Numbered from the stretch's first letter, positions 29,527 to 59,204 are shown. The stretch: DNA of 64,000 nucleotides from an uncultured bacterium (GCA_964499705.1 CAZCME010000017.1:1-64000), one strand, 5' to 3'. The notes: generated by a model not told the origin, from the sequence alone. Program-made: numbers and translations.

Positions 29527-29574
29527 CCTGGTTCGCACGAGCTGAGTGTAGCACGAAAAACGCAAATGCCATGG

Positions 29575-31244: not shown

Positions 31245-31252
31245 CAGCCGGC

Positions 31253-31732
31253 CTAGTAGGTCAGCCGATAACCGCCGTCGCCGGGCTTCTTGCCATCCAC
31301 CTTGAGCACCTTGAATCCAGGCGGCACATCCGCGGAAGCGACGAGAGCAATGCTGCCCGGGATCGCCTTGACGAGATCGCACGCCATCTTGTTCGACGTG
31401 ACGATCTTGGGGCCCGACGTGGCTTCCGCCCGGAAGACCTTGGCGATCCAGTACTGCTTGTACTGAGCCTCGCTCATCTGGTAGATCTTATCCAGTAGCA
31501 CGGTTCGCTCCGGAGCCTTCGCCGCGCGCACAAGGAGCGTCACGCGCTGGTTGTTGCCCTCCCAGAATTGTTTGTCGCCGAGAAGAATTCTACGCAGGTC
31601 ATCGAAGGAAATATTTTCAGCGGAAACCTTGGAGTTGACGACAACCGATACGCTCGAACCCGATTCCACATGCCCCGGTAACGCGATGACAAACGCGAAG
31701 AGAAGGAGAGTAGATGCAAGAATCTGTCGCAT
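31253..31732 (-). CDS. Small periplasmic PBP-like protein (single-lobe, phosphate-ABC substrate-binding-like)
   Basis: Signal peptide; VSVVVN...DDLRRILLG.KQFW and VKAIPGSIALV...KVL motifs. Start could be 31744. Confidence 0.75.
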   Translation of the reverse strand: MRQILASTLLLFAFVIALPGHVESGSSVSVVVNSKVSAENISFDDLRRILLGDKQFWEGNNQRVTLLVRAAKAPERTVLLDKIYQMSEAQYKQYWIAKVFRAEATSGPKIVTSNKMACDLVKAIPGSIALVASADVPPGFKVLKVDGKKPGDGGYRLTY

Positions 31733-39780: not shown

Positions 39781-40679
39781 TGACCATCACGAGGAATGCT
39801 CTCGCCGCGACCCTGGTGCTGGCGATCGGCTCCCTGTCCGGAACCGGCATGGCCGCGGACACCGATAAACTTTCCACCGACACCCATGCCGTCATCATCC
39901 CCGCCGCGACGTCGCCCTCCGCTCCGCGTTCCTTCATGCAATCGCTCATGGACCGCACCGCCCCTTCCATCGTCACCGTCTCCTTCACCATCCGGATGAA
40001 GATGAACTTCGGCGCGGAGATGGGCGGCGGGGAACCGCAGGAGATGCATCATGAGATCAACGGCGTGCTCGTGCAGGACGGCATCGTCGTTGTCTCGCTG
40101 ACGCAGTTGAACGGGCCGGCCGGAATGTTCGCGGGCATGATGGCGGGACAGGGAATGCAGATGGAGATCGTTCCGTCGGAATTTCTCGTCGTCTTTCCTG
40201 ACGGCACGGAACTCTCCGCCGAATTGAAAGCCAAGGATTCCGATCTCGATCTCGCCTTCATCCAGCTCACCGGTCCGCGGCGCGAGGACTTCACGGTTTC
40301 GCCGCTCGACCTGTCGGTCACCGGCGCCGAGCCCGAGGCGGGGGACGAAGTCATTCTCGTGAACCGATTTTCGCGCGAGCTGAATTACGAACCGATCTGC
40401 TTCACGACCCGCGTCAGCGGCGTCATCCGGAATCCACGGACACTTCTCGCGATCATGAACACGAGCGACGCCTTCGGATCCTTCACCGCTTCCCCCGCGT
40501 TCAACGCGGAAGGAAAGCTGGTCGGCATCGTCACGTTCCGGCCTTCGCCGGATAACGGATCGGTCCTACCGACGGGACGCGGAGCCCAGCCGAACATGAA
40601 CGCGATGATGAACGCCATCCGGCTCTTCATCCTGCCCGTCGCCGACCTTGTCCGCGCCGTGGAGAAGGCGAAGAGCTAG
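39777..40679 (+). CDS. Trypsin-like peptidase-fold protein lacking catalytic His/Ser (probable pseudoprotease)
   Basis: APSIVTV, DSDLDLAFI and SPAFNAEGKLVGIV match the HtrA fold, but TNxH and GNSGG are absent. ATGA overlap with the upstream protease. Confidence 0.7.
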   Translation: MMTITRNALAATLVLAIGSLSGTGMAADTDKLSTDTHAVIIPAATSPSAPRSFMQSLMDRTAPSIVTVSFTIRMKMNFGAEMGGGEPQEMHHEINGVLVQDGIVVVSLTQLNGPAGMFAGMMAGQGMQMEIVPSEFLVVFPDGTELSAELKAKDSDLDLAFIQLTGPRREDFTVSPLDLSVTGAEPEAGDEVILVNRFSRELNYEPICFTTRVSGVIRNPRTLLAIMNTSDAFGSFTASPAFNAEGKLVGIVTFRPSPDNGSVLPTGRGAQPNMNAMMNAIRLFILPVADLVRAVEKAKS

Positions 40680-40692
40680 AGGATCGGCGGGC

Positions 40693-42522
40693 ATGTCCCG
40701 CGCCATTCTCTTCACGCAGTGCCTCCAGAACGATTTCGTGCAGCCCCTGGGCGCAAACGATCCGTTGCCGAATCTCCTGCATGTCGGTCACGAGGAATCC
40801 CGGCGGCTCCTCGGTGAAAACCCCGCGGACGGGCCCATCGCGCGGCTCATGTCCTGGGCCTACGGCCGGCCCCTCGAACAGCTTGAACTCATTCATCTCC
40901 GCGACTGGCACGATCCCGCCGATCCGCACCAGGCCGCGCATCTGCGGCAGTTCGGCAACCACTGCCTGAAGGAAACAGCGGGCGCGGCGTTCGCATTCCC
41001 CGTTCCGCCCCACGATGGCGCCACCGTCATCGACTCCCTGTCTCTCAACGATTTCGACCGGACTTCCCTCTCCGACCGGCTTGCTCCATACGCCGGCCGG
41101 TCCTTGAAGGTCGGAATCGCGGGCGTCTGGACCGAGGCGAAAGTTTTCTTTCTCGCCTACGAACTCGCGACACGCTTTCCGACATTCTCGATCGCGATCT
41201 GTTCCGCCCTGACCGCCAGTTCCTCCCGCAGCCAGCACTTCATCGCGCTCGACCAGATCGCGCGCCTGCTGGGCGTGGCCGTCATCCCGTCCCAGGGAGG
41301 ATTCATGGAGTTTCTGGGCGGAGATGAAACTTCGTGGGCCTCATGCCGCGCTCCGGCCACGGACCTGCCGCGCGTGGAATTCGAGGACTGGAACAAGACC
41401 GGAGAGGCGGACCGCAACCTCCTTCGCTACATCTTCCGGGACTGCAAGAGCGTCACGCTGCGCGCGCTTGCGGGAGGATTCTCGGGCAACCTGGTCCTGG
41501 GCGCCGAGAGCACGGACCTCTTCGGCCACCGACAGGCGCCGCACGTCGTGAAGATCGGCCCCCGGGATGCGATCGGCCGCGAGCGAACCGCGTTCGAAAG
41601 AATCGAGTCCGTCCTCGGGAATACCGCGCCGCGCATCGCGGACTTCGCGGACTCCGGGGAGCGGGGCGCGCTGAAGTACCGCTATGCATCGATGAGCGGA
41701 GGAGCTTCGACGACGATCCAGAAGCTCTACCGGGACGGAATCCCGGTGGACGAGCTTCGCGGGATTCTCCGCACCGTCTTCGTGGAACAGCTCGGCCGTT
41801 TCTATTCCGCCGCGACTCGCGAATCCGTCAATCTCCTCGACTACTACTCCTTCAGACCGGATATGGCTCCGCGAGTGCGCGAGCGCGTCGAGGCGATACT
41901 CGGCGCTCCCGCCGCCGGCGAATCGCTCACCCTGCCGGGAAGGATCACGTGTCCCAATCTCTGCCTCTTCTATGAAAACGATCTCGCCCGATTTCCCTCG
42001 ACGCGGCGGGACGCCTGTCTCTTCTCGTACGTTCACGGGGACTTGAACGGGGCGAATATCATCGTGGATGGGAACAGGAACGTCTGGATCATCGATTTTT
42101 TCCACGCGCATCGCGGCCACGCGCTGCGCGACCTGGCGAAATTCGAAAACGATCTCCTCTATATTTTCACGCCGGTCACGAACGAGGACGATCTGCGCGA
42201 ATCGGCGCGGTTGTCGGACCTCATCCTCGGCGTGGAGAACCTCCATCTTCCCCTGCCGCCCGTGGAAACGGTCGGGCTGACCCGGCCGGCGATGATCCGC
42301 GCCTATGAAACCATCCTGCTCCTGCGATCCTTCTACTCCGGCCTCCTGCCCTCGGACGGCGATCCGCTGCAATTGCTGATCGCCCAGTTGCGATATGCGG
42401 TCCATACGTTATCCTTCGACGAACCCGACGCCCTTCAGAAGAAATGGGCGCTTTACACCGCGGGCTGTTGCAGCGCCGCCGTCAGGAACCGGATGACGAA
42501 GAGGGCGGAGATGAAAGGATGA
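40693..42522 (+). CDS. Isochorismatase/nicotinamidase-like domain fused to an APH/protein-kinase-like phosphotransferase
   Basis: N-terminal QCLQNDF, RDWH, HCL and GVWTEAKV; C-terminal GGFSG, VVK, HGDLNGANI and IIDF. Confidence 0.8.
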   Translation: MSRAILFTQCLQNDFVQPLGANDPLPNLLHVGHEESRRLLGENPADGPIARLMSWAYGRPLEQLELIHLRDWHDPADPHQAAHLRQFGNHCLKETAGAAFAFPVPPHDGATVIDSLSLNDFDRTSLSDRLAPYAGRSLKVGIAGVWTEAKVFFLAYELATRFPTFSIAICSALTASSSRSQHFIALDQIARLLGVAVIPSQGGFMEFLGGDETSWASCRAPATDLPRVEFEDWNKTGEADRNLLRYIFRDCKSVTLRALAGGFSGNLVLGAESTDLFGHRQAPHVVKIGPRDAIGRERTAFERIESVLGNTAPRIADFADSGERGALKYRYASMSGGASTTIQKLYRDGIPVDELRGILRTVFVEQLGRFYSAATRESVNLLDYYSFRPDMAPRVRERVEAILGAPAAGESLTLPGRITCPNLCLFYENDLARFPSTRRDACLFSYVHGDLNGANIIVDGNRNVWIIDFFHAHRGHALRDLAKFENDLLYIFTPVTNEDDLRESARLSDLILGVENLHLPLPPVETVGLTRPAMIRAYETILLLRSFYSGLLPSDGDPLQLLIAQLRYAVHTLSFDEPDALQKKWALYTAGCCSAAVRNRMTKRAEMKG

Positions 42523-44742: not shown

Positions 44743-47226
44743 ATGGTATCCTTGACACGTCCGCACCGATGGTCGCTCGTTATCCTTTTCTCGCTTTCTT
44801 CCTCGATCTCCGCGGGCGCCGTGGTGCCGACCTCGGCGGACCTGCGCGTCAACGCGGCGTGGGGACTTCCGACACCGATTCCGATCGGTGCTCCATTTCA
44901 GCTCAACAACATCCAGGTCATCAATAACGGCCGCGATACGGTCGTCGAGGCGCAACTCGTCCTGACGGTGACCAGGAACGGAGCCACGGTCTTCACTTCG
45001 ACGCAGATCATCCGGAATCTGCTCCGACGGATGTCGGCGCTGCGGAACTGCACCGGCATCATCCTGCCCGAACCCGGGGATTACACCTTCCGGGTCGAGG
45101 CGCGTTTCAGCGGCGCGAGCGCGGGCATGACGGACACGAATCGCGCGAACAACGTGATGACGATGACACGCAACGTGGCGCTGCAATCGGCGGATATCGC
45201 CATCACCGGCATCTCCGTGCCGGAACAGATCACGATCGGCCGGCCCCTGCCGGATGTCACAGCGACGCTCCGAAATCACGGGCCCACCGTGGTGTCGATA
45301 AGCCACATGGTGCTCACCATCCTGCGGGATGGCGGGATCGTGGATACGAGGATTTTCGCGTGCTATAACCTCGCGTCCGGTCAGCAGGCTGATCATCTCT
45401 TCTCGGGCCTCCCTTTCGCCGACGCGGGCGAGTACACTTTTCAGTGCGAGGCCCGGTTCAGCGGCGCCAGCACCGCTCTGATCGACGAAAACGCGGCGAA
45501 TAATACACGTTCCGAGATCAGGTCGGCTCTTCTCCCCGTCGCGGATCTCGAGGTCACGGAGATCACCGTTCCCGCGACGATCATCGCCGGGCAGAGTTAT
45601 GCGAATGTAACCGCCAGTCTCAGGAATAACGGTCCGTATCCGGTGACGGCGTGCACCTTCACATCGACTCTTCTTCGATCGGGGAATCAGCAGATTAATC
45701 AGAACGCCATTCCGAATCTGAATCTCGCGTCCGGTCAGCAATCCACTCTTGTCTTTCGAAATCCCTTTGTCGCGGAACCGGGCGAATATACCTTTTCGCT
45801 CGAAGTCGCGCTCTCGCCGGGCAGTTCCCCGACGATCGACACGAATCCCGCGAACAACGTGAAGTCCGTCAACCGCACGGTCGCGGAGCCTCCGCCAGCG
45901 GCGGCCGATCTCGAGGTCGTTCACGTTGGATTCCAGCGTTCGCCCAACCTCGGTCCTGGCAACATCTTGACGATGAGAATCAGGAACAACGGGCCCGCCA
46001 CCACTCCCGGTGACGGCGTATTGCTTGCCGCGCGGCTGGAAAAGGATGGCGAACGGATCTTCGCCAATCAAACAACGTGCGGGCTGGCGTTGACGCCCGG
46101 CGCTTTCTGGAGCTTCTCGACGCCGCCGTTCGAGATCAGCACGGAGCCGGACGTTTACACTCTCGTTGGCGAGGCGACGCTGACGGGGCCGGGCGCCGCC
46201 CTCTCCGACACGAACGAGGCGAATTCCGCGAGGCGCGAAACCGCGTCGATCGGGCTGGCGGATGGATCGAGGCTCGCGCGGATCCGTGTCGCGCGGCTTG
46301 ATGTGCCGCCGGCCGGGAGCACGAACGGCCAGACCGGTTTCGAAGTTGCGATCGCCAATGGAGACAGAAACATGGCGAATCCTCCGGTTGCCGGCTTCTC
46401 GCTCGTGACGCGGATCTGCCCGGCTGGGAATCCCGGCCGCGTCGTTTTCGAGCGAAGGGAACCGGACCTATCTCTGGATCCCGGACAGAATCGCTCCTTC
46501 TCCTACACCCATCAGTTCGAGGAGGGCGACGTCTACTCGGTGACATGCCAGATCGAGACCACTCCCGCGATCGTTCTCGCCAACGCCGCTACCGCGAAAA
46601 GGACTTCTTCTATCAATATTCGGTTCATCGCGAGAGCTCCGGTTTCGGCCGATCTGGCGATCGAATCCGTCGATTCGCTGGGGCGTCCACGAGTCGGTAG
46701 CGGGAATCAGGCGCGCGTGGTTGTGAAAAATAATGGGCCGGACACGGTCGCGGACGGATATATCTTCGTTCAAGGCCGGGATGCCGGAAAGAATATCATA
46801 GGAGGCGGCGCGCGCGTCGGCTTCGAAAAACCTCTGAAGCCGGGGGAGACAGTGGCGCTCGTCGCGCGCGATCTCCAAGTGGCGCAGGGCAACGGCGGCT
46901 CTTTCGCGGCTGAGGTCGACTTCGCGGGCGCGGCCGCGGGCATGATCGACGCCGTTCCCGCGAATAACCGGCGAAGCAGGTCCTTCACGAGGATCGAGAT
47001 GGCATTTCAACCGATGAGGTTCGCCGTCGAAAGATTCGAGTTCACCGGCCGGGATCAGGAGCGCGTACAGATAGAATTCGCCCCCATGAATCTCCGGCTT
47101 CAACCCTTTCAATTTACCGGGCGCGGATTTCAGCCGATCACGCTGACAACGCGCCCTTATGAATTCACGGGCGAGGATGCTTTGCCCAACGATCTGGCTC
47201 CGAACAATCAGGAGGTATTGCGATGA
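44743..47226 (+). CDS. Secreted CARDB/Ig-repeat protein
   Basis: Signal peptide; about 6 repeats starting ADL/ADI, containing NNG/NHG and PGEYTF and ending D.NxANN; three short C-terminal FxP..(F/Y)xFTG repeats. Confidence 0.8.
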   Translation: MVSLTRPHRWSLVILFSLSSSISAGAVVPTSADLRVNAAWGLPTPIPIGAPFQLNNIQVINNGRDTVVEAQLVLTVTRNGATVFTSTQIIRNLLRRMSALRNCTGIILPEPGDYTFRVEARFSGASAGMTDTNRANNVMTMTRNVALQSADIAITGISVPEQITIGRPLPDVTATLRNHGPTVVSISHMVLTILRDGGIVDTRIFACYNLASGQQADHLFSGLPFADAGEYTFQCEARFSGASTALIDENAANNTRSEIRSALLPVADLEVTEITVPATIIAGQSYANVTASLRNNGPYPVTACTFTSTLLRSGNQQINQNAIPNLNLASGQQSTLVFRNPFVAEPGEYTFSLEVALSPGSSPTIDTNPANNVKSVNRTVAEPPPAAADLEVVHVGFQRSPNLGPGNILTMRIRNNGPATTPGDGVLLAARLEKDGERIFANQTTCGLALTPGAFWSFSTPPFEISTEPDVYTLVGEATLTGPGAALSDTNEANSARRETASIGLADGSRLARIRVARLDVPPAGSTNGQTGFEVAIANGDRNMANPPVAGFSLVTRICPAGNPGRVVFERREPDLSLDPGQNRSFSYTHQFEEGDVYSVTCQIETTPAIVLANAATAKRTSSINIRFIARAPVSADLAIESVDSLGRPRVGSGNQARVVVKNNGPDTVADGYIFVQGRDAGKNIIGGGARVGFEKPLKPGETVALVARDLQVAQGNGGSFAAEVDFAGAAAGMIDAVPANNRRSRSFTRIEMAFQPMRFAVERFEFTGRDQERVQIEFAPMNLRLQPFQFTGRGFQPITLTTRPYEFTGEDALPNDLAPNNQEVLR

Positions 47227-47795
47227 AAAAATGGCGCTTTTGGGAATTTTCGTTTGTGATCGTCGGGATGGCGATCCTCTTTTTCGCGTCGGGCGGCGAT
47301 GCCGGAAAAAAATTCTACTCGGGGGGTGATGATCAGGCACAGGCCAATCGTCAGAATATCCTCATCGAGGTGGGAGACGGATCGGACTTCGTCGCCACGG
47401 TTCCAGTCAACTTGCACAATATCCATCCTCTTGTCCGCGCGGTTGTGCTCACCGCCTCTCTGCAGAATTTTCTCGAACGCGACGGCCAGAACGCGTCGGG
47501 CGCGGCGGATGGAGCCCGTGTGACGGTCTCCCGAAGCGTCGTATTGCCACGGGACACGGATATCGTTCGCGATGTCGTGATCGGCATGGCGATCCCGGAT
47601 ACCTATACGAATTCGGATCTACCGTACTATGACGTCACGATGGAGTTCGAGGTGACGGAGGCGGGCGATACAGTGTACCGCGTTCCCATTCCCGCGGATG
47701 ATCAACGCGCCGGTGCGGCGGCAAATCGCCATCTCACGGCGCGTGGCGGAGCGCCGTTGTATTTCACCGAGAACGGAAACGCCCCGCAGCCGTGA
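47223..47795 (+). CDS. Hypothetical exported protein
   Basis: GGAGG SD, ATGA overlap with the upstream gene, N-terminal hydrophobic segment. Confidence 0.65.
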   Translation: MKKWRFWEFSFVIVGMAILFFASGGDAGKKFYSGGDDQAQANRQNILIEVGDGSDFVATVPVNLHNIHPLVRAVVLTASLQNFLERDGQNASGAADGARVTVSRSVVLPRDTDIVRDVVIGMAIPDTYTNSDLPYYDVTMEFEVTEAGDTVYRVPIPADDQRAGAAANRHLTARGGAPLYFTENGNAPQP

Positions 47796-50100: not shown

Positions 50101-50199
50101 GCCACCTCATCGTCCCGATCAAGACCCGGTGCGGACTGCTCATACTGTCGCTCTCCGTGACGGATGAGCAGGGCTGATCCGCTCTCTTATTTTTTCTCG
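50101..50199 (+). repeat. 99-bp direct repeat, copy 2 (orphan cheX 3' fragment plus stop of the sensor-HPt gene)
   Basis: Matches 44525-44623 at 95/99. Confidence 0.95.
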
Positions 50200-52067
50200 C
50201 TCCACGCCGCCTGCAGGCGCTTCAATCCCGCGAACAGCTCCGGAAGCGAATCCTCCAGGATGTCGCATCGGCTCCGGATTTCCTCCGCGTCGTTTTTCCG
50301 GGCCGCGGTCACAAGCGCGGCGGCGTGATCCGAAATGCTGGGAGCCTGGAAGTAGCAGAGCATGCCTTTCAGGGTGCGGGCGGCCTTGATTGCGGCCTCG
50401 GTATCGGTACCCGTCAAGCCGGCTCGTATGCGCGCGAGATGAGCCGCCGCATCGTCCCGGGAAGCGGTGACCAGGCGGTTCAGGAATCCCGGATCGCCGT
50501 CGAGCCGATCCCAGAGCGCCTCCTCGTCGATGAGGCCGCGGGTCGCGCCCGTCTGCGGAGCCGCGTGCGCGAAGTGCGCGGAATCCCGGGTCGCCGGTGT
50601 CGTTGTCGCTCGGGTGGCCGGAGCGGTCACGTCCTCAGCGGACCTGCCGACCGGCTGTGTCTCCGGCGGCGCGGTTGAAGACACCCGTTCCGGAGCGGCC
50701 ATTGTCGCCGCGGAAATTCCGGTTGTGCCTCGCGCCCTGTCGAGATCCCTTTTGACACGGTGAAGTTCCGCGCGACCGAGCGCCTGCGCGGCAAGATGCG
50801 AAACGCCGATCAGGAAGGTCTGTTCATCCGGGAGCCATTTCCTCGGGGTGCCCGCATGTTCCACGCCCAGAACTCTCGAGACGCCATCGTCGCCATGGAT
50901 CGGCACGTACATCAAGGCGCCGATACCGGCCGCGGCGAAATATCCCGACGGCATTTCCCTGGTCCTGACATCCGAGGATACATCGTCGATGACGAGGATA
51001 TCGCCGGCATTCAATGCATGGAAAAAAACCGGGTATTCGCCCACGACAAGCTGGGCGCCCAGCTCGTGCGTATCGGTCTGCAGCCGATACAGGTCTTCAC
51101 TGCTGAACAGGTCGCGCTTCCTTGAAAATCGCCACACGATGACGCGGGAACACTCGATCGTCCTCGCCAGCAATTCATTCACCTGCTTCAGATACTCCTG
51201 AACTCCCTCCGATCCGAATTCCCCGTTCCGCGCGAGAGCCTTCAACGCCGCCTGCTGTCGCACGTAACGCCGCTGGTTCTGCCGCATCTGGTCCTCGATC
51301 ACCTTGCGCCGTTCCGCCATCTTGTTGAAGGCTTCGCCGAGCGCGCCCAGCTCGTCGGTCGTCTTCACTTCGATCCTGTGTTCCAGTTCCCCCATTCCCA
51401 GCCGGACCGCGCCCTTCTTCAATCGCGCCAGTCCCTGCGTGACATACGTCGAGATCTTGTACGCCATGCCCGCCGCGAGGACCGCGGATACGATAAACGT
51501 GATGAACGCGATGCGGTCGTTCGTCTGCGACGCGGCATGGAAATTCTCCCTCGCCCGCGCGGCGCGCTCCTGTTCCTCCCGGACAAGCCGCGGAAGGAGC
51601 GTCTCGATGATGCTCTGCGAGAGCGGTTCCGCGGTGACGGAGAGCTCGGTGATGGCCGCGGTGGGCTCGCTGCTGAAATTCTCGATCACGAGGGTCCACG
51701 ACGCGAGCAGCTTGTCGCACTCCGCCAGGTCGGCGGCCAGTGAAGACGCGCCCGCGCCGCGAACGAGCACATTAAGCTTCGGCCGGATCTGGTGAAGCCG
51801 GTCCCCGAGCGCCAGGATCTCCGGCGGCGTCTCGACCACGGTCTCCATCGCCTGGGAGAAGACGCCCGAAAGGAGCGACAATTCGCGCTGGAAATCGTGG
51901 ATGTTCGTCTTCAGTTCGTTGATCGACTTTTCCTGTTCCAGCGCGCGGCCCAATTCCTCGAATCCGCGGTTGCGCTCCTCGCGGCCCATGACGAAGACGG
52001 TGATGTTGAGGGCGAAGAGCACCATGATGCCCAGGAACGTGAGCGCAAGGCGGCGTTGTATCGTCAC
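50187..52067 (-). CDS. Membrane sensor-HAMP-GAF protein with degenerate C-terminal HPt domain and no kinase
   Basis: Two TM helices around a helical sensor; HAMP DELGALGEAFN; GAF (IDDV..D.RT...RKWLPDEQTF); HPt-like IDEEAL..RLDGD...AARTLKG. Confidence 0.8.
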   Translation of the reverse strand: MTIQRRLALTFLGIMVLFALNITVFVMGREERNRGFEELGRALEQEKSINELKTNIHDFQRELSLLSGVFSQAMETVVETPPEILALGDRLHQIRPKLNVLVRGAGASSLAADLAECDKLLASWTLVIENFSSEPTAAITELSVTAEPLSQSIIETLLPRLVREEQERAARARENFHAASQTNDRIAFITFIVSAVLAAGMAYKISTYVTQGLARLKKGAVRLGMGELEHRIEVKTTDELGALGEAFNKMAERRKVIEDQMRQNQRRYVRQQAALKALARNGEFGSEGVQEYLKQVNELLARTIECSRVIVWRFSRKRDLFSSEDLYRLQTDTHELGAQLVVGEYPVFFHALNAGDILVIDDVSSDVRTREMPSGYFAAAGIGALMYVPIHGDDGVSRVLGVEHAGTPRKWLPDEQTFLIGVSHLAAQALGRAELHRVKRDLDRARGTTGISAATMAAPERVSSTAPPETQPVGRSAEDVTAPATRATTTPATRDSAHFAHAAPQTGATRGLIDEEALWDRLDGDPGFLNRLVTASRDDAAAHLARIRAGLTGTDTEAAIKAARTLKGMLCYFQAPSISDHAAALVTAARKNDAEEIRSRCDILEDSLPELFAGLKRLQAAWSEKK

Positions 52068-52474
52068 TCGCTCTTTGCTGTCAACCTTTCCAGCAGGGAC
52101 CGGACGATCGGAAAGATGATCGACGGATTATCGAGAATGAGCTTCCTGAAGTGGTCGTTGGAAATGGAGAGCGCGTTCACATCCTCGATGACCTCGATCG
52201 TGGCGTTCCTCTTTCCGCTCCCGAGGATCGCCATCTCCCCGAAATGCGCGGGCGGCGAGAGATCGACATCCTCGAGGCCGGAATAAACGCGCACCTTGCC
52301 GTTTTCGAGGATGAAGAGCTCCGACCCTTCCTCCCCCGCCCGCATGATGAGATCGCCCGCGGAAAATGTCACCTCGCGGCAGATCGCGCTGACGCGCCGC
52401 AGCTCGTCCGTCGTCAGGTCTCGGAAGAAAGGGACTTCCCTCAACAGGAGAATCTTCTCGAAGGTGGATAGCAT
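52064..52474 (-). CDS. Stand-alone cyclic-nucleotide-binding domain protein
   Basis: EKILLLREVPFF, GEEGSELFI and the phosphate-binding cassette FGEMAIL...RNAT; no HTH. Confidence 0.92.
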   Translation of the reverse strand: MLSTFEKILLLREVPFFRDLTTDELRRVSAICREVTFSAGDLIMRAGEEGSELFILENGKVRVYSGLEDVDLSPPAHFGEMAILGSGKRNATIEVIEDVNALSISNDHFRKLILDNPSIIFPIVRSLLERLTAKSE

Positions 52475-52477
52475 GGT

Positions 52478-55285
52478 CTAGGCCGCCCTGGCCGGCAGCA
52501 GCGACAGCGCTTCCAGAGCGAAGGGGTCACGAAGGAGCGAAGGCCGCAGCCGGGATTCCATCTCGCCTCTCGTGACGCGGAACGTCCGCGCATGCCTCCC
52601 CAGGTCGGACAACGCGACGGCGACGAGCCAGGGATCGCGATCCGAAGCCAGGCGCACAAGCACATCGCGGCATGTCTCCAGCCCGGCGCGATCCGCCGCG
52701 GAGGGCGACGATGACGGAGCGGGCTCGGTGTTTATCGCGGATGTCCAGCCTCTCAAGGACGCGAAGAGGTCGCGCAGTTCCTTCACGACGGCCGCATCGG
52801 CCACGCCCCCCGAGTTCTCGATTGTCTCCATCGCCCGGTCCACCGTTCCCTTCTCGTGCGAAATCAAACCTTGGTATACCGAGTCGAAAGCGTCAAGCGG
52901 CATGATGACGAGCGCCTTCCAGGCGAGAGATTTATCGACAAGCTGGAGCATCCTTTCCTTCAGGACGATCGCCGTCAGATTTTTATCGGAAGCGGTCGAG
53001 AGAAAAGCGGAAACCGCCGCGTAATCGGCGCGCGCCTGGTCCAGTGATCCCAGCAGATTCGCCGTGATCCGTTCTTCGTGCGCCGCCTTCGTCTTCGAAG
53101 GATCCAGGCTCTTCCACGTCGTACAGCACAGGAGAAACAGATCCGCCGGAAGCGCCGCGGTCGTCAACAGCGGCGCCAGTTCCTCGGCGCCGAGAAGCCG
53201 GCCCCGGCTTCCCATCCGCAGGACGATCTCCTGCTCCTGCTTCGGCAGTTCCCCGAAAGCCTCCCAGAGATCTCCGAACGTATCATGAGCCGGGATCCGC
53301 TCGAGAATTTTCAACGCGGTGCGCCGACGCGCGACATTATCCGTCCGGAACAGTTTCAAAAGCGTCGCCGCGAAAATGTCGTCGCGGCCATCCTCCAGTT
53401 TTTCCATGAGCATCAGCCATGCGTCGATGACATCGGGCTCTGAAAGAAACGACTCGAATTCCTTCATCAGTTTCCGCTCTTCCAGGTTCCGCACGATCTC
53501 CAGCGCCCACAACAGCTCATCCTTATCTCCCGAATGAATCGTCTCCTTCAGCTTGAGATGGCCCTTGTAGGCGAAATACTGGCTCGGGGAGAGGCAGAGG
53601 TGATAGAGCGCCGCGCGCTTCAGGCGGCGGCTGGATCCGGCGTCGCCCATCAGGTCCAGGGCCTGCTCCGAGATGAACGGTTCCATGAAATCGCCATGCA
53701 CCATGAACAGGGCCGATACCGATTCCTCGTCGGTCGACCGCAGGAGACTTTCGAGCCAGGGACGGTCCTTTTCGCGCATGCGGGCCCGCACGGTCTTCAC
53801 GATCGCGCCGCGCACGCGATCAGACGAGCGGGCGTGCAGTTCCGGCAGCCGGTCGATCACGCCGTCGGAGAGCACGTTCCGATATTCCTCGAAGAGGAGC
53901 ATCGCGACATCGTCGTCGGCCTTCTCCAGCGTGGCGATGTAATGGTCCGGATGAATATCGACCTCCATGACGCCGTGCGAAAACGAAGTGCTCTCCGAGA
54001 ATCCGGACCTCCCCTTGCCGATCTGCTCGATGAGGCAGGCGACGTATTTCCTGCGGAGGATGAACGCGGTGCAGATGAATGTGATGCCGAAGAAAACCGT
54101 GAGCATCGCGATGTCGCCGAGCCCGCCCGCGTCCTGCACGGCGAGAATGACAAGGCTCGCCACGATCGTCGTGACGGCCGCGATCGGGCCTTTCAGGAGC
54201 GACCGCATCCGGCTCCGTTCCTGCGGATGCAGCGCGTTCAGGAGAATGTCGACGAGCACCGTGAAAAAGCTTCCTTTCAGATAGCGCCGCGTGAAGGCTC
54301 CGGAGACGGCTGCCGGGAGCCCCGGCCAGCGCGCGAGAAAGAGGCCGGCGCCCGCGGTGCAGAGTGGAAAAATGAACGCGGCGTTTCCGGCGCCGATCTT
54401 CCGGACCAGTGGCGACAGGATGAGCGTTTGCAGCAGGAGCCCCGCCACGAAGGAAAGGCTGGTGAAAAGCCCGAGGAATCGCGCCAGCTCGGCGGGCGAG
54501 GAGTACACCTCGCCGAAGACGAACTGGCTCTGGAAATCCAGAAGCTGCGTCAGCACCGCGCCCAGGATCACGTAGACGCAGACGATCAGGAGAAAGGCCT
54601 GGGAAAAGAAGGTCCGGATCCGGAGATGCGTGCGGCGGAGGAATGTTCCGCGGGCATGCTCGGGTTTATCATCCGTCGGTTTCCAGATCTCGACGGCGGT
54701 GCCTCCGCGCTCGATGGCGGCGATGATGAAGGGCATCATGAGGAGTCCGAAGAGCCAGAGCGCAAGAGCATGCACGGGAGAAGTGACGCCCGAAATGAGC
54801 GTGACTCCCGCGCCGCCAATGGCGCCGCCCAGGCTTCCGCCCGCGGCGATCAGCGGAAAGTTCTTCTTGCTCTCGGAGAAATCGAAATGGCGCGACGCCA
54901 GGTTCCAGACCTGCGAGAAGATGACGAACGCGGCCAGCTCCGGAAGAATATACAGGAGAACCGTCGCCGCGCGGAAGTTCGCGGCGATCCCCGACCAGAC
55001 GAGGACGATCGCGGCCATGCAGGCGTACAGCGAGAAGCTCAGCAGTTTCATGGGCTCGATCCGCTGTTCCAGCTTCCGGAGAATGCGCTCCGCCGCGATC
55101 GCGACGAGGGCCACCAGCACGAAGGCATGCGGCAGGTATTTCGCTCCGTAAGTTTCGAGAAAGAGCGCCGTGCCGAGATTGGATCCGATGACGATGCCGG
55201 AAACGGCGAGGAGGTTCAGGATGAAGAAAAGGCGGGAGGCCATGACGCGGCGGGATGCATCGGACGCTTCTGCAGGCGCGGACAT
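52478..55285 (-). CDS. NTT/TLC-like (ADP/ATP carrier-like) MFS membrane domain fused to HEAT-like repeats
   Basis: ALFLETYGAKYLP, QVWNLA..FD..ESKK.FP.I..GGSLG, QLLDFQ and LARFLG in ~12 TM helices, followed by ~500 aa of helical repeats ending DRDPW. Confidence 0.8.
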   Translation of the reverse strand: MSAPAEASDASRRVMASRLFFILNLLAVSGIVIGSNLGTALFLETYGAKYLPHAFVLVALVAIAAERILRKLEQRIEPMKLLSFSLYACMAAIVLVWSGIAANFRAATVLLYILPELAAFVIFSQVWNLASRHFDFSESKKNFPLIAAGGSLGGAIGGAGVTLISGVTSPVHALALWLFGLLMMPFIIAAIERGGTAVEIWKPTDDKPEHARGTFLRRTHLRIRTFFSQAFLLIVCVYVILGAVLTQLLDFQSQFVFGEVYSSPAELARFLGLFTSLSFVAGLLLQTLILSPLVRKIGAGNAAFIFPLCTAGAGLFLARWPGLPAAVSGAFTRRYLKGSFFTVLVDILLNALHPQERSRMRSLLKGPIAAVTTIVASLVILAVQDAGGLGDIAMLTVFFGITFICTAFILRRKYVACLIEQIGKGRSGFSESTSFSHGVMEVDIHPDHYIATLEKADDDVAMLLFEEYRNVLSDGVIDRLPELHARSSDRVRGAIVKTVRARMREKDRPWLESLLRSTDEESVSALFMVHGDFMEPFISEQALDLMGDAGSSRRLKRAALYHLCLSPSQYFAYKGHLKLKETIHSGDKDELLWALEIVRNLEERKLMKEFESFLSEPDVIDAWLMLMEKLEDGRDDIFAATLLKLFRTDNVARRRTALKILERIPAHDTFGDLWEAFGELPKQEQEIVLRMGSRGRLLGAEELAPLLTTAALPADLFLLCCTTWKSLDPSKTKAAHEERITANLLGSLDQARADYAAVSAFLSTASDKNLTAIVLKERMLQLVDKSLAWKALVIMPLDAFDSVYQGLISHEKGTVDRAMETIENSGGVADAAVVKELRDLFASLRGWTSAINTEPAPSSSPSAADRAGLETCRDVLVRLASDRDPWLVAVALSDLGRHARTFRVTRGEMESRLRPSLLRDPFALEALSLLPARAA

Positions 55286-57468
55286 TACTGGAGAAACGTC
55301 GGTTCCTCGGGCATCGGCTTTGATTCTCGGATCAGGGGAGCCTGGATGAAGGGCGCGGACACAAGGTTGTGGCGGCGCGCGAAATCGATGTACATCAGGT
55401 AGACGGCGTCGGGGATCGTGCCCTGGTGCCGGGCCACGATGAGAAGCTGCTTGACCGTTATCCCCTGTTCCTTCGCCAGTTTATCCATCTCCGCCGCCAG
55501 CCCGCCGTCGTGGTCGATGAGCTGCTTCAGGAGCTCCATATTCGACCATTCCTGCACAACCTTGATCCGCGACCGGATGCGGCCCTTGAAGGCCTTTTCT
55601 ATGAGGGCCAGTTTCTCCGGCGTGAACTTCTCGTGGATCTCCTCGAAATAGCCGCCGCCCGGACGATAGAGAATTTCCGAGGACCAGTCCGATGTCTTCA
55701 GGGGATGCTCGAAGATGCTGTCGTTGACCTTGCCGCCCAGCTCGATCGGGCGCAGCGGCTTGGAGATAACGAACTGCGCGGCCTTGTATTCGTAGGCTTC
55801 CCGGATCTTGTCGTTCCGCTTCGGCTTGACGACGGAGATCCGCAGGAGCGCCAGTCGCTCGGTCTTGCCCAGGTCGGACTGCTCCGAGCGGAAAAGATTC
55901 TTGATGATCGGAATGGAGCCGAGGATGGGAATGCGCGAGAAATTCGTCGTGCGATCCTCATTGACGGCGCCCCCGATCAGGATCAGTTCGCCGTCCTCCA
56001 CGATCTGGGGCGACTCGAAGAGAACCTCCGTGGAGAAGAACGCGATATTGCCGGCGCCGGCGGATGCGACCTGGTCGCCCCGGCGGCCATCCTTCAACTG
56101 GAGCCGGTCGAGGATGATCTTGTAGGGCCGGCTGCCGTCCTCGGCCGCTTCCCCCTCCGCCACCGCGATGCCGCTCACCTTCAGCACGAGACCGGTCCGG
56201 ATGAAGGAGACGTTCGTGCCGTTCTGGGAGACGGTGAGCTGCGGGATGTTCTCGTTCTGCTCGAAGGTCCCCTCGCCGCCCGAAAGAAATGTGATGTGCG
56301 GCTTCAGAACGATCTCCGCGGCGCCCTCGGTAATGAGCGTGCCGAGCGACGCGGTGAAGACCTTGCCGCCGGCCGTCGTCCATTGGTACTGGAGGTTCGG
56401 GAGATCGTTCGCGAGGAGATCCATGGAGAGATTCTCCCGCGTCGTGCGATCGCGCCGGGGAGGAGGCGTGCCGTCGGAACGGGTGATCGTGGAGGTGACT
56501 TCCGTTCCGAGCCGGCGGGCCTTGGAATGCCGGACCGAAAGGATGGTGCCCTCGACGATGATGGTCGGAGGTTCGGCGTCATAGGTGCTCAGAAATTCGC
56601 GGATCTTGTCCAGCTGGGGCGTCGCCGCCGTGATGATAAGTGTGCGATTCGAGTCGGACTGTTCGAGAATCGAAGGACGGTAGTGAGCCTTTATGATCCG
56701 GATCGCTTCGCTGAGCGGATGGTAATAGACAGGAAACACTTCCGTCTGCTCCATCGCGAATCCTTTCGTGTCCTCGATGTCGATTTCCTTCAACACGTTG
56801 GAAACGAGGTCGAGAATGCGCGGGGCCGCGGAGACGATGACCGCGTTCTTGTCGGTATCCGTCGAAACGCTGAACGTCCGGTGGATTTTGATGTAGTGCT
56901 CGCGGATGTAATCCTGCGCGCGCGCCGCCGCCATGTGCTTCAACCAGAAGATTCTCGTCCGCAAAGGCGGATCTCCGGTGGCGATCTCGTCCCGATAGGA
57001 ATTGTATTCGCGATCGAGCTGCTGAAGCAGAAGAGCGATCTGGAGGTGGCTGTCGCCCGGCGCCATGATGAGGAGACTGTTGTTAACCTTGTCGCCGATG
57101 AGAATCTTCGGCGCGAATTGCTTGGAGATCAGTTCCTTCGCATCTTCGACGGACAGGTAGCGCACGGGATAGGAAAGTGTGAAGACGCCTTCCTGATCGA
57201 AATGTCGAAGCGATGAAAAGACCGAATCCGGCGAAACGGACATGCCTGAGAATATGATCATCCTCGTGTCGTCGCCCATGATGAACTCGGGACCGTAGAG
57301 TGCCGTGAGATAGCGGGACATGAGAGCGGGATCCACCCACTCGACCCGGAGCTGGTATTCTTCAGGTGGACGCAACTCGCCCAAAGCCGCGCGCGACAGA
57401 GTGCTGAAAATCACAAGGCTGACAAAGGCTGCCAGCATGAAGCCCATGGAAGTGCAACGTCGTCGCAT
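55285..57468 (-). CDS. Secretin (GspD/PulD-like outer-membrane channel) with repeated N domains and a C-terminal extension
   Basis: Signal peptide; about 4 Secretin_N-type repeats (e.g. IFWLKH...DTDKNAVIVSA); core IIVEGTIL, TGLVLKV, DGELILIGG and IPILGSIPIIKNLFRS. Confidence 0.85.
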   Translation of the reverse strand: MRRRCTSMGFMLAAFVSLVIFSTLSRAALGELRPPEEYQLRVEWVDPALMSRYLTALYGPEFIMGDDTRMIIFSGMSVSPDSVFSSLRHFDQEGVFTLSYPVRYLSVEDAKELISKQFAPKILIGDKVNNSLLIMAPGDSHLQIALLLQQLDREYNSYRDEIATGDPPLRTRIFWLKHMAAARAQDYIREHYIKIHRTFSVSTDTDKNAVIVSAAPRILDLVSNVLKEIDIEDTKGFAMEQTEVFPVYYHPLSEAIRIIKAHYRPSILEQSDSNRTLIITAATPQLDKIREFLSTYDAEPPTIIVEGTILSVRHSKARRLGTEVTSTITRSDGTPPPRRDRTTRENLSMDLLANDLPNLQYQWTTAGGKVFTASLGTLITEGAAEIVLKPHITFLSGGEGTFEQNENIPQLTVSQNGTNVSFIRTGLVLKVSGIAVAEGEAAEDGSRPYKIILDRLQLKDGRRGDQVASAGAGNIAFFSTEVLFESPQIVEDGELILIGGAVNEDRTTNFSRIPILGSIPIIKNLFRSEQSDLGKTERLALLRISVVKPKRNDKIREAYEYKAAQFVISKPLRPIELGGKVNDSIFEHPLKTSDWSSEILYRPGGGYFEEIHEKFTPEKLALIEKAFKGRIRSRIKVVQEWSNMELLKQLIDHDGGLAAEMDKLAKEQGITVKQLLIVARHQGTIPDAVYLMYIDFARRHNLVSAPFIQAPLIRESKPMPEEPTFLQ

Positions 57469-57596
57469 GCCGGAGCAGCTTAGCCCGGATCAACTGGGTT
57501 GAAAAGAGTTCTCTTCATCACCGGCAGCCATAAATCCATAAATTCCTTTGCATACCGGCTCTAAAGTGCGGCAACTTTGCATCCGATAGAAAAGCC

Positions 57597-59204
57597 ATGA
57601 AGACACGAACGATTACCCGCGAAGAAGCCCTCAGCCGCCTGTCTCTGCCGATCGACCCGTCGTCCTTCGATCATGGCATCTGCCATCTCTATGCTCATGC
57701 GCTCATCGACCGCGCCGTCGGAGCCGGCACGACATCACTCCGGGAGGAAGACCTGGTCGCGATCGACCGCTATTTCCAGCTCCTGTCCCAGGGATTGGAC
57801 CGCGGAGCCGCGATCCGGCAGATCGAGGCCGAAGAAGGGCGTGAAGTTCCCGCGGCGCAGGAGCCTCGCGCAGGCTCTTCCCGGGCCAGTTCTGCCGTCG
57901 CCGCAATCGCGACGACCGTTCCGGCGGTTCTTCCTCAGGTCTCCCCGACGCCCGCTCCCCGATCCCGCGATAACGCGACCGACCTCCGCTTCGCTCTGGA
58001 AGACGAGGTGGACCGCGCCGTCGCCCGGGCCCGCGACCGGTTGAAGCTCGATCTCCACGAGGCCTGCCACACGATCGCGGCCGACGCGGAACGATTGAGC
58101 GCCAAGCAGGGAATCGAGCTTAGGGCCCGCGTTGAAACCGCGACGCGTGAAGCTCTGGAAGTGATCGACCATGCCAGGAAGAACGCGGGCGAGCGCGTCT
58201 GGAAGGCCGCGCTGGCCGATGTCCAGACCCAGATCAAGTCGTCCATCGCCGATGCCGCCACGGAAATCGCCGGGATCCGCAGATTCGAGGCGGATGAAGC
58301 CGTCTTCGAGATTCGCGAATCCGGCGATGCGCTCGCCAAGAAAGCCGCCGAGACACTGGAGAAGAAGATCAAGGAGAGCGAGAATTATTTCCGCGCCTTC
58401 TGCGAAGTCGAGGTCCGCACCCGCGCCGAAGTCGCGGCCGAAAGCATGCGCGCCGATTTCCGAACGCGCATCGACGCGTCGCTCGCCGAAGCCGCGAGGA
58501 TCCTGTCGGAGCTCAACAAGACCGCCGGCGAAACCGCGAACCGGACCGTAGACGACGTCGCCGCGCGGGCCGCGAAGTCCGCCGAGGACGCGATCGTCCG
58601 CCGCGCCGCGGTCATCGAATCCGATCTCCGCGAAGTCGCCCGCGACGTCACATCCTCGGCGGCGCGGGCCGCGGAGCAGATTCAACCGGCGTTCCAGGCC
58701 GTCGCCGAGTCCACGCTCCGCGATGCCGTGGACCGGATCGGAACGATGTCGAAGGATGTCGAGGATCAGGTCCGCCGGCTGGCGGATTCCGAGGTGCGCG
58801 CGCGCATCGACGCGACGATCCAGGAAAGCCTCGCGATCGCCCGCGCCAGGATCGAAGACAAGTACCTGGAATCAGCCCATCAGTCGATCCAGAAGGATCT
58901 GCTGGAATCCGAGCAGAGACTATCCGAGCGAATCGAAAAGGAGATCGTGCGGTTCGAGACGAGGATCCACACCTGCTTCGAACTGGCGCGCGAAGTGAAC
59001 AATCCCGTCCCGCCCCGCAACAGGGTCGAATCCTTCCACGCGTTCCTCTCGGGCTTGACGGATCTCCTCTGGCCCCTCTGGAGCATGATCGCCGGTCCCG
59101 GCCGCGTCTACGCAGCTCGCGCCCAGCAAAATGCCGCAGCCCAGAATACAGCCCAGAACGTGGTGACCTTCCCCGCATCGAGCGAGATAGAAAAGGCCGC
59201 ATAA
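57597..59204 (+). CDS. Hypothetical long alpha-helical/coiled-coil protein
   Basis: About 350 aa Ala/Glu/Arg-rich helical stretch almost free of Pro; divergent from the secretin operon. Confidence 0.7.
   Translation: MKTRTITREEALSRLSLPIDPSSFDHGICHLYAHALIDRAVGAGTTSLREEDLVAIDRYFQLLSQGLDRGAAIRQIEAEEGREVPAAQEPRAGSSRASSAVAAIATTVPAVLPQVSPTPAPRSRDNATDLRFALEDEVDRAVARARDRLKLDLHEACHTIAADAERLSAKQGIELRARVETATREALEVIDHARKNAGERVWKAALADVQTQIKSSIADAATEIAGIRRFEADEAVFEIRESGDALAKKAAETLEKKIKESENYFRAFCEVEVRTRAEVAAESMRADFRTRIDASLAEAARILSELNKTAGETANRTVDDVAARAAKSAEDAIVRRAAVIESDLREVARDVTSSAARAAEQIQPAFQAVAESTLRDAVDRIGTMSKDVEDQVRRLADSEVRARIDATIQESLAIARARIEDKYLESAHQSIQKDLLESEQRLSERIEKEIVRFETRIHTCFELAREVNNPVPPRNRVESFHAFLSGLTDLLWPLWSMIAGPGRVYAARAQQNAAAQNTAQNVVTFPASSEIEKAA

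Follow-up and report, generated by a model that had tools for sequence, protein, structure and literature searches.

Secretins are textbook components of four types of machine and, to our knowledge, every characterised secretin works together with an inner-membrane machine. The pIV protein of filamentous phages is a secretin that uses a minimal set of inner-membrane partners and not a full pilus machine.

NTT-HEAT proteins with a cNMP-binding domain (cNBD), encoded either in fused form or by a separate gene a few nucleotides downstream, were described by Major, Embley and Williams in 2017 (PMC5381601). NTT-HEAT(-cNBD) proteins are widespread, being reported by that survey from cyanobacteria, chlamydiae and oomycetes. 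No function is known for any of them, and in the part of the survey considered here no member of the fused NTT-HEAT-cNBD family is reported as assayed for nucleotide transport.

A compact four-gene locus with a secretin and an NTT-HEAT-like protein

The locus under study belongs to an uncultured bacterium from groundwater and lies in a 64-kb window (i.e., the whole stretch of DNA analysed, 64,000 nucleotides). It comprises four minus-strand ORFs, preceded by a short intergenic region:

57469–57596, no strand: intergenic region of 128 bp between the secretin gene and a divergent 535-aa ORF, presumed promoter region
55285–57468, minus strand: secretin P0001, ORF of 727 aa
52478–55285, minus strand: P0002, ORF of 935 aa, with a divergent NTT(TLC)-like MFS domain (predicted membrane part, residues 1 to ~412) and a HEAT-like domain (~520 aa, predicted helical and cytoplasmic)
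52064–52474, minus strand: cNMP-binding protein P0003, ORF of 136 aa
50187–52067, minus strand: membrane sensor P0004, ORF of 626 aa, with predicted TM1, a ~155-aa periplasmic domain, TM2, HAMP, GAF, a Pro/Thr/Ala-rich linker and an Hpt-like domain

Upon re-reading of the sequence, the four ORFs and three junctions were found exactly as the first-pass annotation had placed them, i.e., start and stop codons overlapping as TAATG at 55285 (secretin/MFS-HEAT), a 3-nt gap at 52475–52477 (TAG ACC ATG; MFS-HEAT/cNBD), and a GTGA overlap at 52064–52067 (cNBD/sensor). The domains claimed for the four proteins were likewise recovered, with Pfam matches for Secretin, TLC, cNMP_binding, HAMP, GAF and Hpt. 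The database gene call starts the secretin at Met8 (720 aa) and the sensor at Met15 (612 aa). The latter start would abolish the GTGA overlap, and the GTG start is favoured by the hydropathy prediction of TM1 at residues 9–27 (TM2 being predicted at residues 186–204). Of the two genes bordering the locus, one is divergently and the other convergently oriented. The four genes of the locus probably form a co-translated operon that joins two modules.

The 128-bp intergenic region contains two copies of ATGCAAAG; neither a sigma-70-like site nor an inverted repeat was detected within it. The divergent ORF on its far side (57597–59204, plus strand) is unannotated and coiled-coil-like, and matched no family in the scan of window ORFs.

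The carrier-like protein and the cNBD correspond to a described pair

P0002 resembles the NTT-HEAT proteins of PMC5381601 in that an NTT/TLC-like membrane domain is followed by a C-terminal region, putatively made of helical repeats in P0002, and a separate cNBD gene lies closely downstream in both cases (3 nt here). The TLC match of P0002 is weak and partial (25.2 bits vs. a Pfam cut-off of 21, profile positions 148–362 of 491), although three of the four subfamily members yield one; a weak MFS_1 match was obtained as well, and HEAT_2 scored 18.1 bits, i.e., under its cut-off of 27.7. The MFS-HEAT profile (A1) matched chloroplast NTT1 (9j3j) with an E-value of 1.3e-5 over the family signature region, and homology of P0002 to NTT is, as judged from these profile comparisons, weak but real. 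Hydropathy revealed ten peaks within residues 19–410 and short periplasmic loops throughout the MFS part, making a direct contact between the secretin and this part unlikely. The distant homologues of P0002 are MFS-HEAT(-cNMP) proteins with clear HEAT domains. Compared with these typical members, to which P0002 is 21–27% identical, its subfamily is highly divergent, and only three close relatives were present in 5.8 billion clusters.

P0003 carries a clear cNMP_binding domain (PF00027, 64.2 bits vs. a Pfam cut-off of 27.5) and is 35–36% identical over 134–138 aa to the C-terminal cNBD of two fused MFS-HEAT-cNMP proteins (L018 and L019). Judging by this alignment, it is the split-off third domain of the NTT-HEAT-cNBD proteins. 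Its FGE...RNAT segment, read by eye, is presumably the phosphate-binding cassette.

The first-pass annotation had not recognised the gene combination from any described system. This holds for one part of it: whereas an NTT-HEAT protein with an adjacent or fused cNBD had already been published, the part of that paper considered here (PMC5381601) mentions neither a secretin before this pair nor a HAMP-GAF-Hpt-like sensor after it. What the present locus adds to the published pair is a rare secretin subfamily joined to NTT-HEAT in a few relatives.

A lineage-specific sensor

In the sensor P0004, Pfam identified HAMP (46.4 bits), GAF (35.7 bits) and, at residues 532–611, Hpt (PF01627, 28.1 bits vs. 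a cut-off of 24.6); PDB sequence searches with this protein returned no Hpt match. Read by eye, the Hpt-like domain carries AARTLKG, in which we take an Arg to replace the usual His of the H-x-L-K-G motif (pseudo-HPt). The closest ESM Atlas clusters are sensor-HAMP-GAF proteins (0.93–0.94), which P0004 resembles in having a periplasmic domain flanked by two TM segments, then a HAMP and a GAF domain, and no kinase, cyclase or GGDEF output. It differs from them by the addition of the long low-complexity linker and the Hpt-like four-helix domain. No homologue of the sensor was detected in 5.8 billion clusters, so that the four-part system envisaged by the first-pass annotation is not supported as a conserved unit.

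The secretin represents a rare GspD-like subfamily

The secretin P0001 could be divided into three regions:

56581–57360, minus strand: predicted periplasmic N-domains, four alpha/beta modules (residues ~37–296; AF2, pLDDT 80–92)
55828–56391, minus strand: predicted beta-barrel core (residues ~360–547; AF2 strands 360–547; Pfam Secretin 378–547)
55288–55827, minus strand: subfamily-specific C-terminal extension (residues 548–727), with a conserved linker motif and a predicted helical domain at ~604–700

The Pfam Secretin match covers nearly the entire profile (69.8 bits vs. a cut-off of 27.5, positions 2–168 of 169; 73.4 bits in the genome-wide scan), and two stretches of the N-domain region match Secretin_N (62.8 bits). 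When the AF2 model (mean pLDDT of 72.9) was searched with Foldseek, T2SS GspD structures came out best (E-value of 5.9e-23, with 5wq8, 5zdh and 6hcg at ~1e-22), and of the 52 PDB fold matches at E ≤ 0.001, those listed were either secretins or N-domains of secretins, headed by GspD. The N-domains by themselves matched the N-terminal domains of GspD/XcpQ (E-values of 2e-5 to 1e-4), and the profile of the secretin family (A2) matched GspD chains in the PDB with up to 100 bits (best, 6hcg). With both the barrel domain and the N-domain fold present, P0001 is a member of the secretin superfamily (PF00263).

Regarding its placement relative to the GspD and PilQ types, a question raised by the first-pass annotation, the NCBIfam scores fell far under all four cut-offs: 84.3 bits vs. 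238.45 for T3SS SctC (TIGR02516, the top score), 77.8 vs. 284.35 for T4P PilQ (TIGR02515), 75.2 vs. 351.35 for T2SS GspD (TIGR02517), and 53 vs. 250 for MshL. Tad RcpA (8odn) was the weakest PDB profile match (E-value of 6e-4), which does not place P0001 among the RcpA proteins.

The C-terminal extension (~170–180 aa) is 48–49% identical across two phyla, vs. ~34% for the whole secretin. It was matched by only 17 proteins among 1.84 billion representatives, with a Secretin domain directly preceding it in each of the 14 newly found ones. Structure searches yielded no fold match for the extension, and none of the PDB sequence matches of the secretin reached past approximately profile position 573. 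On these alignments, the C-terminal domain is both rare and conserved, and P0001 is best assigned to a rare subfamily of GspD-like secretins that is marked by this domain. Like GspD/PulD, it combines a Sec-type signal peptide with repeated N-domains and a barrel towards the C-terminus; unlike in GspD/PulD, the conserved ~180-aa extension with its helical domain replaces the short S-domain, and gspC-M, pilin or ATPase genes are absent nearby.

P0001 also shows similarity to the pIV protein of fd/M13-type phages, whose structure 7ofh was hit in both the sequence-profile and the fold searches. The secretin could therefore be left over from a filamentous phage (pIV-type) or another mobile module. 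We consider such an origin very improbable, given that the 30 phage records are only 22–24% identical over 43–54% of the protein, with none closer, and that phage gene families are absent among the scanned window ORFs. Moreover, GC3 is 0.79–0.81 in all four ORFs and resembles that of the housekeeping genes of the contig, while the tetranucleotide distance of the operon equals the genome median (51% of 300 random windows being at least as distant), so that by composition the operon is native to the genome. It also differs from the pIV system in lacking a pI/pXI-like ATPase and in its chromosomal housekeeping context, with the Suf operon, PolA and DnaB encoded in the flanks.

Co-location of the secretin and MFS-HEAT genes in relatives

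In the secretin tree, the window protein forms a clade with P0028, P0029 and P0039 (SH-aLRT of 96). A related MFS-HEAT gene shares a contig with the secretin in all three testable clade members, a count that includes the source genome of the window itself (G000) next to two Logan contigs. One of these (8197 bp) carries P0028 and P0006, 55 and 66% identical to the window proteins, and the other (8408 bp) carries P0039 and P0007, 38 and 36% identical; in both cases co-location was deduced from matching contig size and concerns contig-level linkage of two genes only. In a relative with ~91% DNA identity, contigs bridge both the cNMP/MFS and the MFS/secretin junction, and sensor sequence is present as well. 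With regard to conservation in relatives, the criterion set by the first-pass annotation, co-location of the secretin and MFS-HEAT is thus retained within the clade.

In another small phylum, three of the four genomes encode a secretin orthologue (~550 bits), there followed by a Peptidase_S8 subtilase and a PorV/PorQ-like protein and not by MFS-HEAT, with an 861-aa protein without assigned family among the further neighbours. Neither G041 nor G044 contains a match to the A1 profile, and the matches in G043 are all distant and located on other contigs. The existence of such orthologues without MFS-HEAT indicates that the secretin can do without this partner. A secretin orthologue is missing from the four nearest genomes (same family or order), in which the best match reaches 62 bits and covers the core only. 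Among 40 other genomes, including these four, MFS-HEAT was matched only in G002 (same family) and G028, in both cases by distant fused paralogues.

These variable neighbours (MFS-HEAT in one clade vs. the 861-aa protein, S8 subtilase and PorV/PorQ-like protein in another) are what would be expected if the secretin were an autonomous or otherwise-partnered pore without any tie to NTT-HEAT, the synteny being inherited and the TAATG junction reflecting ordinary compaction. That the C-terminal domain outconserves the rest of the secretin points in the same direction, as it suggests a function independent of neighbouring genes, and the linkage is known from only three or four related lineages, which as kin are not independent. 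Nevertheless, the synteny is kept down to ~37% protein identity, which is seldom neutral in bacteria, and the start and stop codons of the secretin and MFS genes overlap, so that we regard an autonomous pore as unlikely.

Secretion machines in the window and the genome

The first-pass annotation had noted no T2SS, T4P, Tad or T3SS part nearby, and the scans agree. T2SSE, T2SSF and pilin families were absent from the 13 + 36 scanned window ORFs and the four operon proteins, and a six-frame search of the window with our own regular expression found no prepilin-like motif. With respect to a GspD context, the ORFs scanned in the 64-kb window include no gspE/F, pseudopilin or gspC-like families; with respect to a PilQ context, they include no pilMNOP-like genes, and the position upstream of the secretin is taken by the divergent ORF without family. 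On this contig, the T2SSE-type match closest to the operon is PilT-like and lies ~14.6 kb away (C17:72066–73130), with the Suf operon and further unrelated genes in between. In the three other genomes (G041, G043 and G044), no T2SSE is present on the contig of the secretin. In the four genomes with visible context, this secretin subfamily is therefore encoded apart from pilus/secretion ATPases.

The genome as a whole holds 21 T2SSE and 9 T2SSF matches in five platform loci. A Tad-like locus on C13 carries its own secretin, T4P genes on C1 (two PilB-like, one PilT-like and one PilC-like) adjoin none, and a GspE(MshEN)-GspF pair is truncated where contig C41 ends. With no secretin thus visible next to at least two machines, components that work with P0001 may be encoded elsewhere. 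P0001 might then be the outer-membrane part of a T2SS/T4P-like machine, sharing its transcript with an unrelated NTT-HEAT/cNBD/sensor module. Its top sequence and fold matches to T2SS GspD fit this possibility, as do the orthologous secretins that adjoin unrelated genes in other genomes. Weighing against it are the co-location with MFS-HEAT down to 36–38% identity, the lack of an ATPase on the secretin's contig in all three other genomes, the NCBIfam scores far under every machine-type cut-off, the conserved C-terminal domain unique to the subfamily, and the absence of pilMNOP-like and gspC-like neighbours. On balance, a machine elsewhere seems to us rather unlikely, if less so than an autonomous pore.

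A possible two-step route across the envelope

We tentatively favour, while rating it somewhat short of probable, a two-module operon that encodes a two-step envelope route via the secretin and a cNMP-gated NTT-like carrier. The first module would reside in the inner membrane and cytoplasm, and consist of the NTT-like 12-TM carrier with its cytoplasmic HEAT-like arm, the cNBD and the sensor. As in the fused relatives, the split-off cNBD probably docks on the HEAT-like arm, and the lineage-specific sensor (periplasmic domain-HAMP-GAF-Hpt-like), devoid of enzymatic output, would belong to this module as well. We read the module as a carrier or transceptor that is gated by cNMP and acts on a nucleotide-like anion. 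The second module would be the GspD-like secretin with its own C-terminal domain. One solute might then cross the envelope in two steps, through the gated secretin in the outer membrane and the NTT-like carrier in the inner membrane, with cytoplasmic cNMP acting via the cNBD, and possibly also the GAF domain, and with the periplasmic domain of the sensor supplying the outside signal. Transport as such, its substrate and direction, gating by cNMP, the protein contacts and a piston-free opening of the secretin are all elements that we infer. Arguments against the route are the secretin orthologues without MFS-HEAT, the sensor without homologues, the short periplasmic loops of the MFS part, and the presence in this genome of inner-membrane machines such as those with which characterised secretins work.

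A more far-reaching version, which we put forward as a long shot, holds that the secretin subfamily needs no pilus, pseudopilus or needle machine to function, since its C-terminal domain takes over from pilotin/gating partners. In this clade, nucleotides or similar anions would then follow a route under cNMP control, with the secretin as the gate in the outer membrane and the NTT-HEAT carrier in the inner membrane, and the periplasmic domain of the sensor would link both membranes.

For NTT-HEAT(-cNBD) proteins, clues such as a conserved partner gene are rare, even though this one is limited to a divergent branch. A secretin subfamily encoded apart from the known machines in four genomes raises the question of whether some secretins act alone or with new partners. 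If a cNMP-controlled secretin/NTT-HEAT route indeed exists, it would provide the first functional context for NTT-HEAT-cNBD proteins and the first secretin used in small-solute traffic. In line with control by cNMP, the genome contains 15 class III cyclase matches, the best of which is a HAMP-cyclase encoded inside the window (29613–31382).

Gene order and coding quality of the secretin operon

An ORF listing recovered, to the nucleotide, the four minus-strand ORFs that the first-pass annotation had proposed as an operon for a trans-envelope cyclic-nucleotide system.

Genes of the operon and its flanks (window coordinates)
57597-59204, plus strand, flanking ORF, divergent from the operon
55285-57468, minus strand, secretin (P0001), ORF of 727 aa
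52478-55285, minus strand, NTT/TLC-like MFS-HEAT protein (P0002), ORF of 935 aa
52064-52474, minus strand, cNBD protein (P0003), ORF of 136 aa
50187-52067, minus strand, sensor (P0004), ORF of 626 aa
47896-50064, plus strand, flanking ORF, convergent with the operon, fused membrane/spermidine-synthase-like protein

The three junctions described for these genes could also be read directly, i.e., the secretin/MFS-HEAT overlap as CAG-TAATG-TCC at 55285, the 3-nt gap between the MFS-HEAT and cNBD genes as TAG-ACC-ATG, and the GTGA overlap of the cNBD and sensor genes as GAGTGA with a GTG start within, the sensor start being uncertain. In the public gene calls, Met8 is the first residue of the secretin and Met15 that of the sensor; the secretin start is likewise uncertain. 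Since the first hydrophobic segment of the sensor comprises residues 9-27, the GTG start (and hence the GTGA overlap) is favoured. The GC3 of the four ORFs (0.79-0.81) is like that of the PolA, DnaB and Suf genes of the contig and the tetranucleotide profile of the operon is at the genome median, so that the operon genes look real and native.

A promoter and terminator scan performed no better than on shuffled sequence (3 vs. 1.2±1.2 promoter-like and 8 vs. 6.4±2.9 terminator-like sites), and no promoter-like or terminator-like site or inverted repeat was present in the gap at 57469-57596. Two copies of the octamer ATGCAAAG lie in this stretch between the divergent genes, upstream of the secretin (57540-57590, starts 30 bases apart); they may mark a regulator site or have arisen by chance. 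The divergent ORF encodes a 535-aa, Ala/Glu/Arg-rich, coiled-coil-like protein that lacks TM segments and belongs to no family in Pfam or NCBIfam. In a relative of ca. 91% identity, a contig spans the counterpart of this ORF and then 1082 bases upstream that do not align.

Domain content of the four proteins

A Pfam scan bore out the domain calls of the first-pass annotation. P0001 matched Secretin (69.8 bits) and Secretin_N, P0002 matched TLC (25.2 bits, cut-off 21) with HEAT_2 and MFS_1 below threshold, P0003 matched cNMP_binding (64.2 bits), and P0004 matched HAMP, GAF and Hpt (28.1 bits, cut-off 24.6). In the sensor, two TM segments flank a periplasmic stretch of ca. 155 aa; HAMP and GAF domains come next, and a long linker rich in Pro, Thr and Ala leads to the Hpt-like end. 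As the loops of the MFS protein are short, no other inner-membrane protein encoded by the operon has a substantial periplasmic portion. By eye, its Hpt-like site reads AARTLKG, with an Arg standing where, on our own reading rather than that of a tool, we take the phospho-accepting His to belong. The Atlas clusters closest to the sensor are output-less sensor-HAMP-GAF proteins (0.93-0.94), a homologue search of 5.8 billion clusters returned the self-match only, and PDB sequence searches with the sensor and its Hpt-like end gave nothing meaningful (top match an anti-CRISPR protein, E about 1).

The secretin subfamily and its C-terminal extension

P0001 scored far under the NCBIfam cut-offs (238-351), reaching 84 bits for SctC, 78 for PilQ, 75 for GspD and 53 for MshL. 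Both by profile (6hcg, 100 bits) and by fold (5wq8, E 5.9e-23), its nearest match is T2SS GspD. Behind the barrel, ca. 180 residues aligned to no PDB sequence in a profile search. This extension is 48-49% identical across two phyla, where the whole protein is ca. 34% identical, and its profile matched no more than 17 of 1.84 billion representative proteins; the Secretin domain directly precedes it in all 14 of the 14 newly found proteins. AF2 predicted a confident helical domain at ca. 604-700 and left the most conserved linker motif unmodelled in the monomer. A fold search with the C-terminal domain gave no Foldseek match at E<=0.001, and the top VIA Z of 5.7 (1sed YhaL, rmsd 4.3, 89 aligned) is within the stated noise range for helical models.

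In a quick tree of the subfamily and the genome's five other secretins only, which has long branches and no canonical GspD/PilQ/RcpA/SctC references, the 21 subfamily members were split from those five by one branch (SH-aLRT 98). A search for related loci with the secretin alignment yielded one in genome_contigs and none in metagenome_contigs. That the secretin is a phage remnant is highly improbable, given an identity to pIV of merely 22-24%.

Secretins and machines in the window and the genome

The claim that no secretion or pilus machine accompanies the secretin was upheld for T2SS, T4P, Tad and T3SS parts among the 49 further window ORFs scanned. These are housekeeping or unrelated genes (RNase Y, DnaB, L9, PolA, proteases, aldehyde dehydrogenase, a CARDB protein, the Suf operon and others), and our own prepilin regex had no match in the six frames of the window.

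The genome (4.67 Mb in 45 contigs, completeness 96%) yielded six secretin hits, with P0001 the lowest (73 vs. 132-163 bits), as well as 21 T2SSE hits and platform proteins at five loci. An ATPase adjoins four of the five other secretins (contigs C4, C7, C13 and C35). The T4P genes on contig C1 have no adjacent secretin, and the end of contig C41 truncates a GspE(MshEN)/GspF pair; P0001 could therefore serve a machine encoded elsewhere in the genome, which we regard as possible but doubtful.

Some secretin ORFs in these genomes are giant. Outside the window, a 3382-aa ORF on C1 (479546-489694) carries a secretin domain close to its end, with a tail of ComEA-like helix-hairpin-helix type, and a locus from G002, a genome of the same family, encodes a fusion of a secretin with four HHH_3 repeats (L018:10-2670). 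Open frames of 1961-2818 aa surround secretin hits in genomes G003 and G004 and in G041-G044, the latter from a different small phylum; giant secretin ORFs are present in both phyla. Such proteins may combine a secretin with DNA-binding domains of its own.

The MFS-HEAT and cNBD pair

The available part of Major, Embley and Williams 2017 (PMC5381601) describes NTT-HEAT proteins as a monophyletic, widespread family of unknown function, with some NTT-HEAT genes having a cNBD gene 'several nucleotides' downstream and other members being fused as NTT-HEAT-cNBD. Distant homologues of P0002 likewise include MFS-HEAT-cNMP fusions. Two that were fetched (L018 from G002 and L019 from genome G028) both have HEAT and cNMP_binding domains; TLC was matched in L019, and the MFS part of L018 is visible only as homology to P0002. 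Over its full length, P0003 is 35-36% identical to the C-terminal cNBD of these fusions.

The P0002 subfamily profile matched chloroplast NTT1 (9j3j) with an E of 1.3e-5 across the shared motif region, and the NTT relationship of P0002 is, judged from sequence, weak but real. Only three close relatives were present in 5.8 billion clusters (69, 66 and 36% identity), and the MFS-HEAT alignment retrieved no related locus from genome_contigs or metagenome_contigs. A reading as energy parasite was rejected, as the genome has no canonical TLC transporter and one sub-threshold match.

Conservation of the secretin/MFS-HEAT linkage

Of the conserved gene order that was expected, co-location on one contig held for secretin and MFS-HEAT protein within one clade, in 3/3 testable members, and failed for the orthologues of the different small phylum, which lack the MFS-HEAT partner. 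The clade (SH-aLRT 96) unites the window secretin with its relatives P0028, P0029 and P0039, of which P0029 was left out of the count because it is cut by a contig end. P0028 (55% identity) and the MFS-HEAT relative P0006 (66%) are each on one Logan contig of 8197 bp, and P0039 (38%) and P0007 (36%) each on one of 8408 bp, the shared contigs being deduced indirectly from these equal lengths. In the groundwater relative of ca. 91% identity, contigs bridge two of the three operon junctions.

The secretin orthologue is absent from the four nearest genomes and present in three of the four genomes of the different small phylum (ca. 550 bits). There, the MFS-HEAT profile had no match in G041, G042 and G044 and only distant matches, on other contigs, in G043, and no T2SSE hit fell on the secretin-orthologue contigs (3 genomes). 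The two genes behind the orthologue in G043 and G044, the first of them 35-37 nt away, encode a subtilase bearing a weakly T9SS-like tail and a PorV/PorQ-family protein, in that order; the gene behind it in G041 opens with a signal-peptide-like sequence, after which the contig ends. A convergent secretin-HHH fusion/MFS-HEAT-cNMP pair in G002 was rejected as a second linkage, involving a different secretin type, the opposite strand and a distant paralogue.

As the most likely reading, which we hold tentatively, the three downstream genes would form an NTT-like carrier or transceptor responsive to cNMP, with a functional tie to the secretin, which would handle the same solute at the outer membrane. 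It is synteny and translational coupling alone that suggest this tie, and we consider it rather unlikely that the secretin/MFS-HEAT synteny was simply inherited, with no shared function.

The novelty that the first-pass annotation saw in the gene combination does not extend to the NTT-HEAT/cNBD pair, which is already known from the available part of PMC5381601, and stands for the secretin linkage in the literature searched. No publication found there brings together a secretin, a nucleotide transporter and a HEAT repeat, and orphan secretin led to an unrelated neuropeptide context only. As far as the searches and that part of the paper reach, the subfamily of secretins is new, and so are the C-terminal domain that it carries and its linkage to NTT-HEAT within the clade.

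Further observations

A HAMP-class III adenylate/guanylate cyclase in the window (29613-31382, minus strand, 178 bits) is the best-scoring of the genome's 15 cyclase hits, and cNMP signalling is therefore plentiful. Since its 3′ part overlaps a long ORF for an NfeD-like protein (28210-30099), the latter must start further downstream. In G044, the second gene upstream of the orthologous secretin, in divergent orientation, encodes a TPR-adenylate/guanylate cyclase (L035:2905-5676, minus strand); this is a second cNMP-related neighbour of the subfamily, though perhaps a coincidental one.

One gene pair recurs in several copies in both lineages. Its first member encodes a protein whose C-terminal domain of ca. 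150 aa gives weak T9SS-sorting-like matches, and its second a PorV/PorQ-family protein (ca. 300 aa, 118 bits, cut-off 90). The pair is a hint that these uncultured groups sort cargo in a T9SS-like manner.

Positions of the recurring PorV/PorQ pair
L034:9166-12870, fetched locus
L035:11053-14765, fetched locus (G044)
C1:4662-6106, source genome
C1:69306-70732, source genome
C26:15331-16691, source genome
C26:38273-39770, source genome
C33:1321-3029, source genome
C10:96230-97614, source genome

Elsewhere in the window, one plus-strand run (37645-42522) combines a trypsin-like protease carrying two PDZ domains, another trypsin-like ORF and a protein of 624 aa with ternary-complex-associated domain 9 (TCAD9, 201 bits); these genes may act as a system for conflict or for signalling. 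An IS200-like (Y1_Tnp) transposase ORF (17140-17802, minus strand) lies amid housekeeping genes. Directly preceding the convergent membrane/spermidine-synthase-like gene, a plus-strand stretch (44743-47795) encodes a secreted protein of 827 aa in which a CARDB-like module is repeated, and then a 190-aa ORF of no family with one N-terminal hydrophobic segment.
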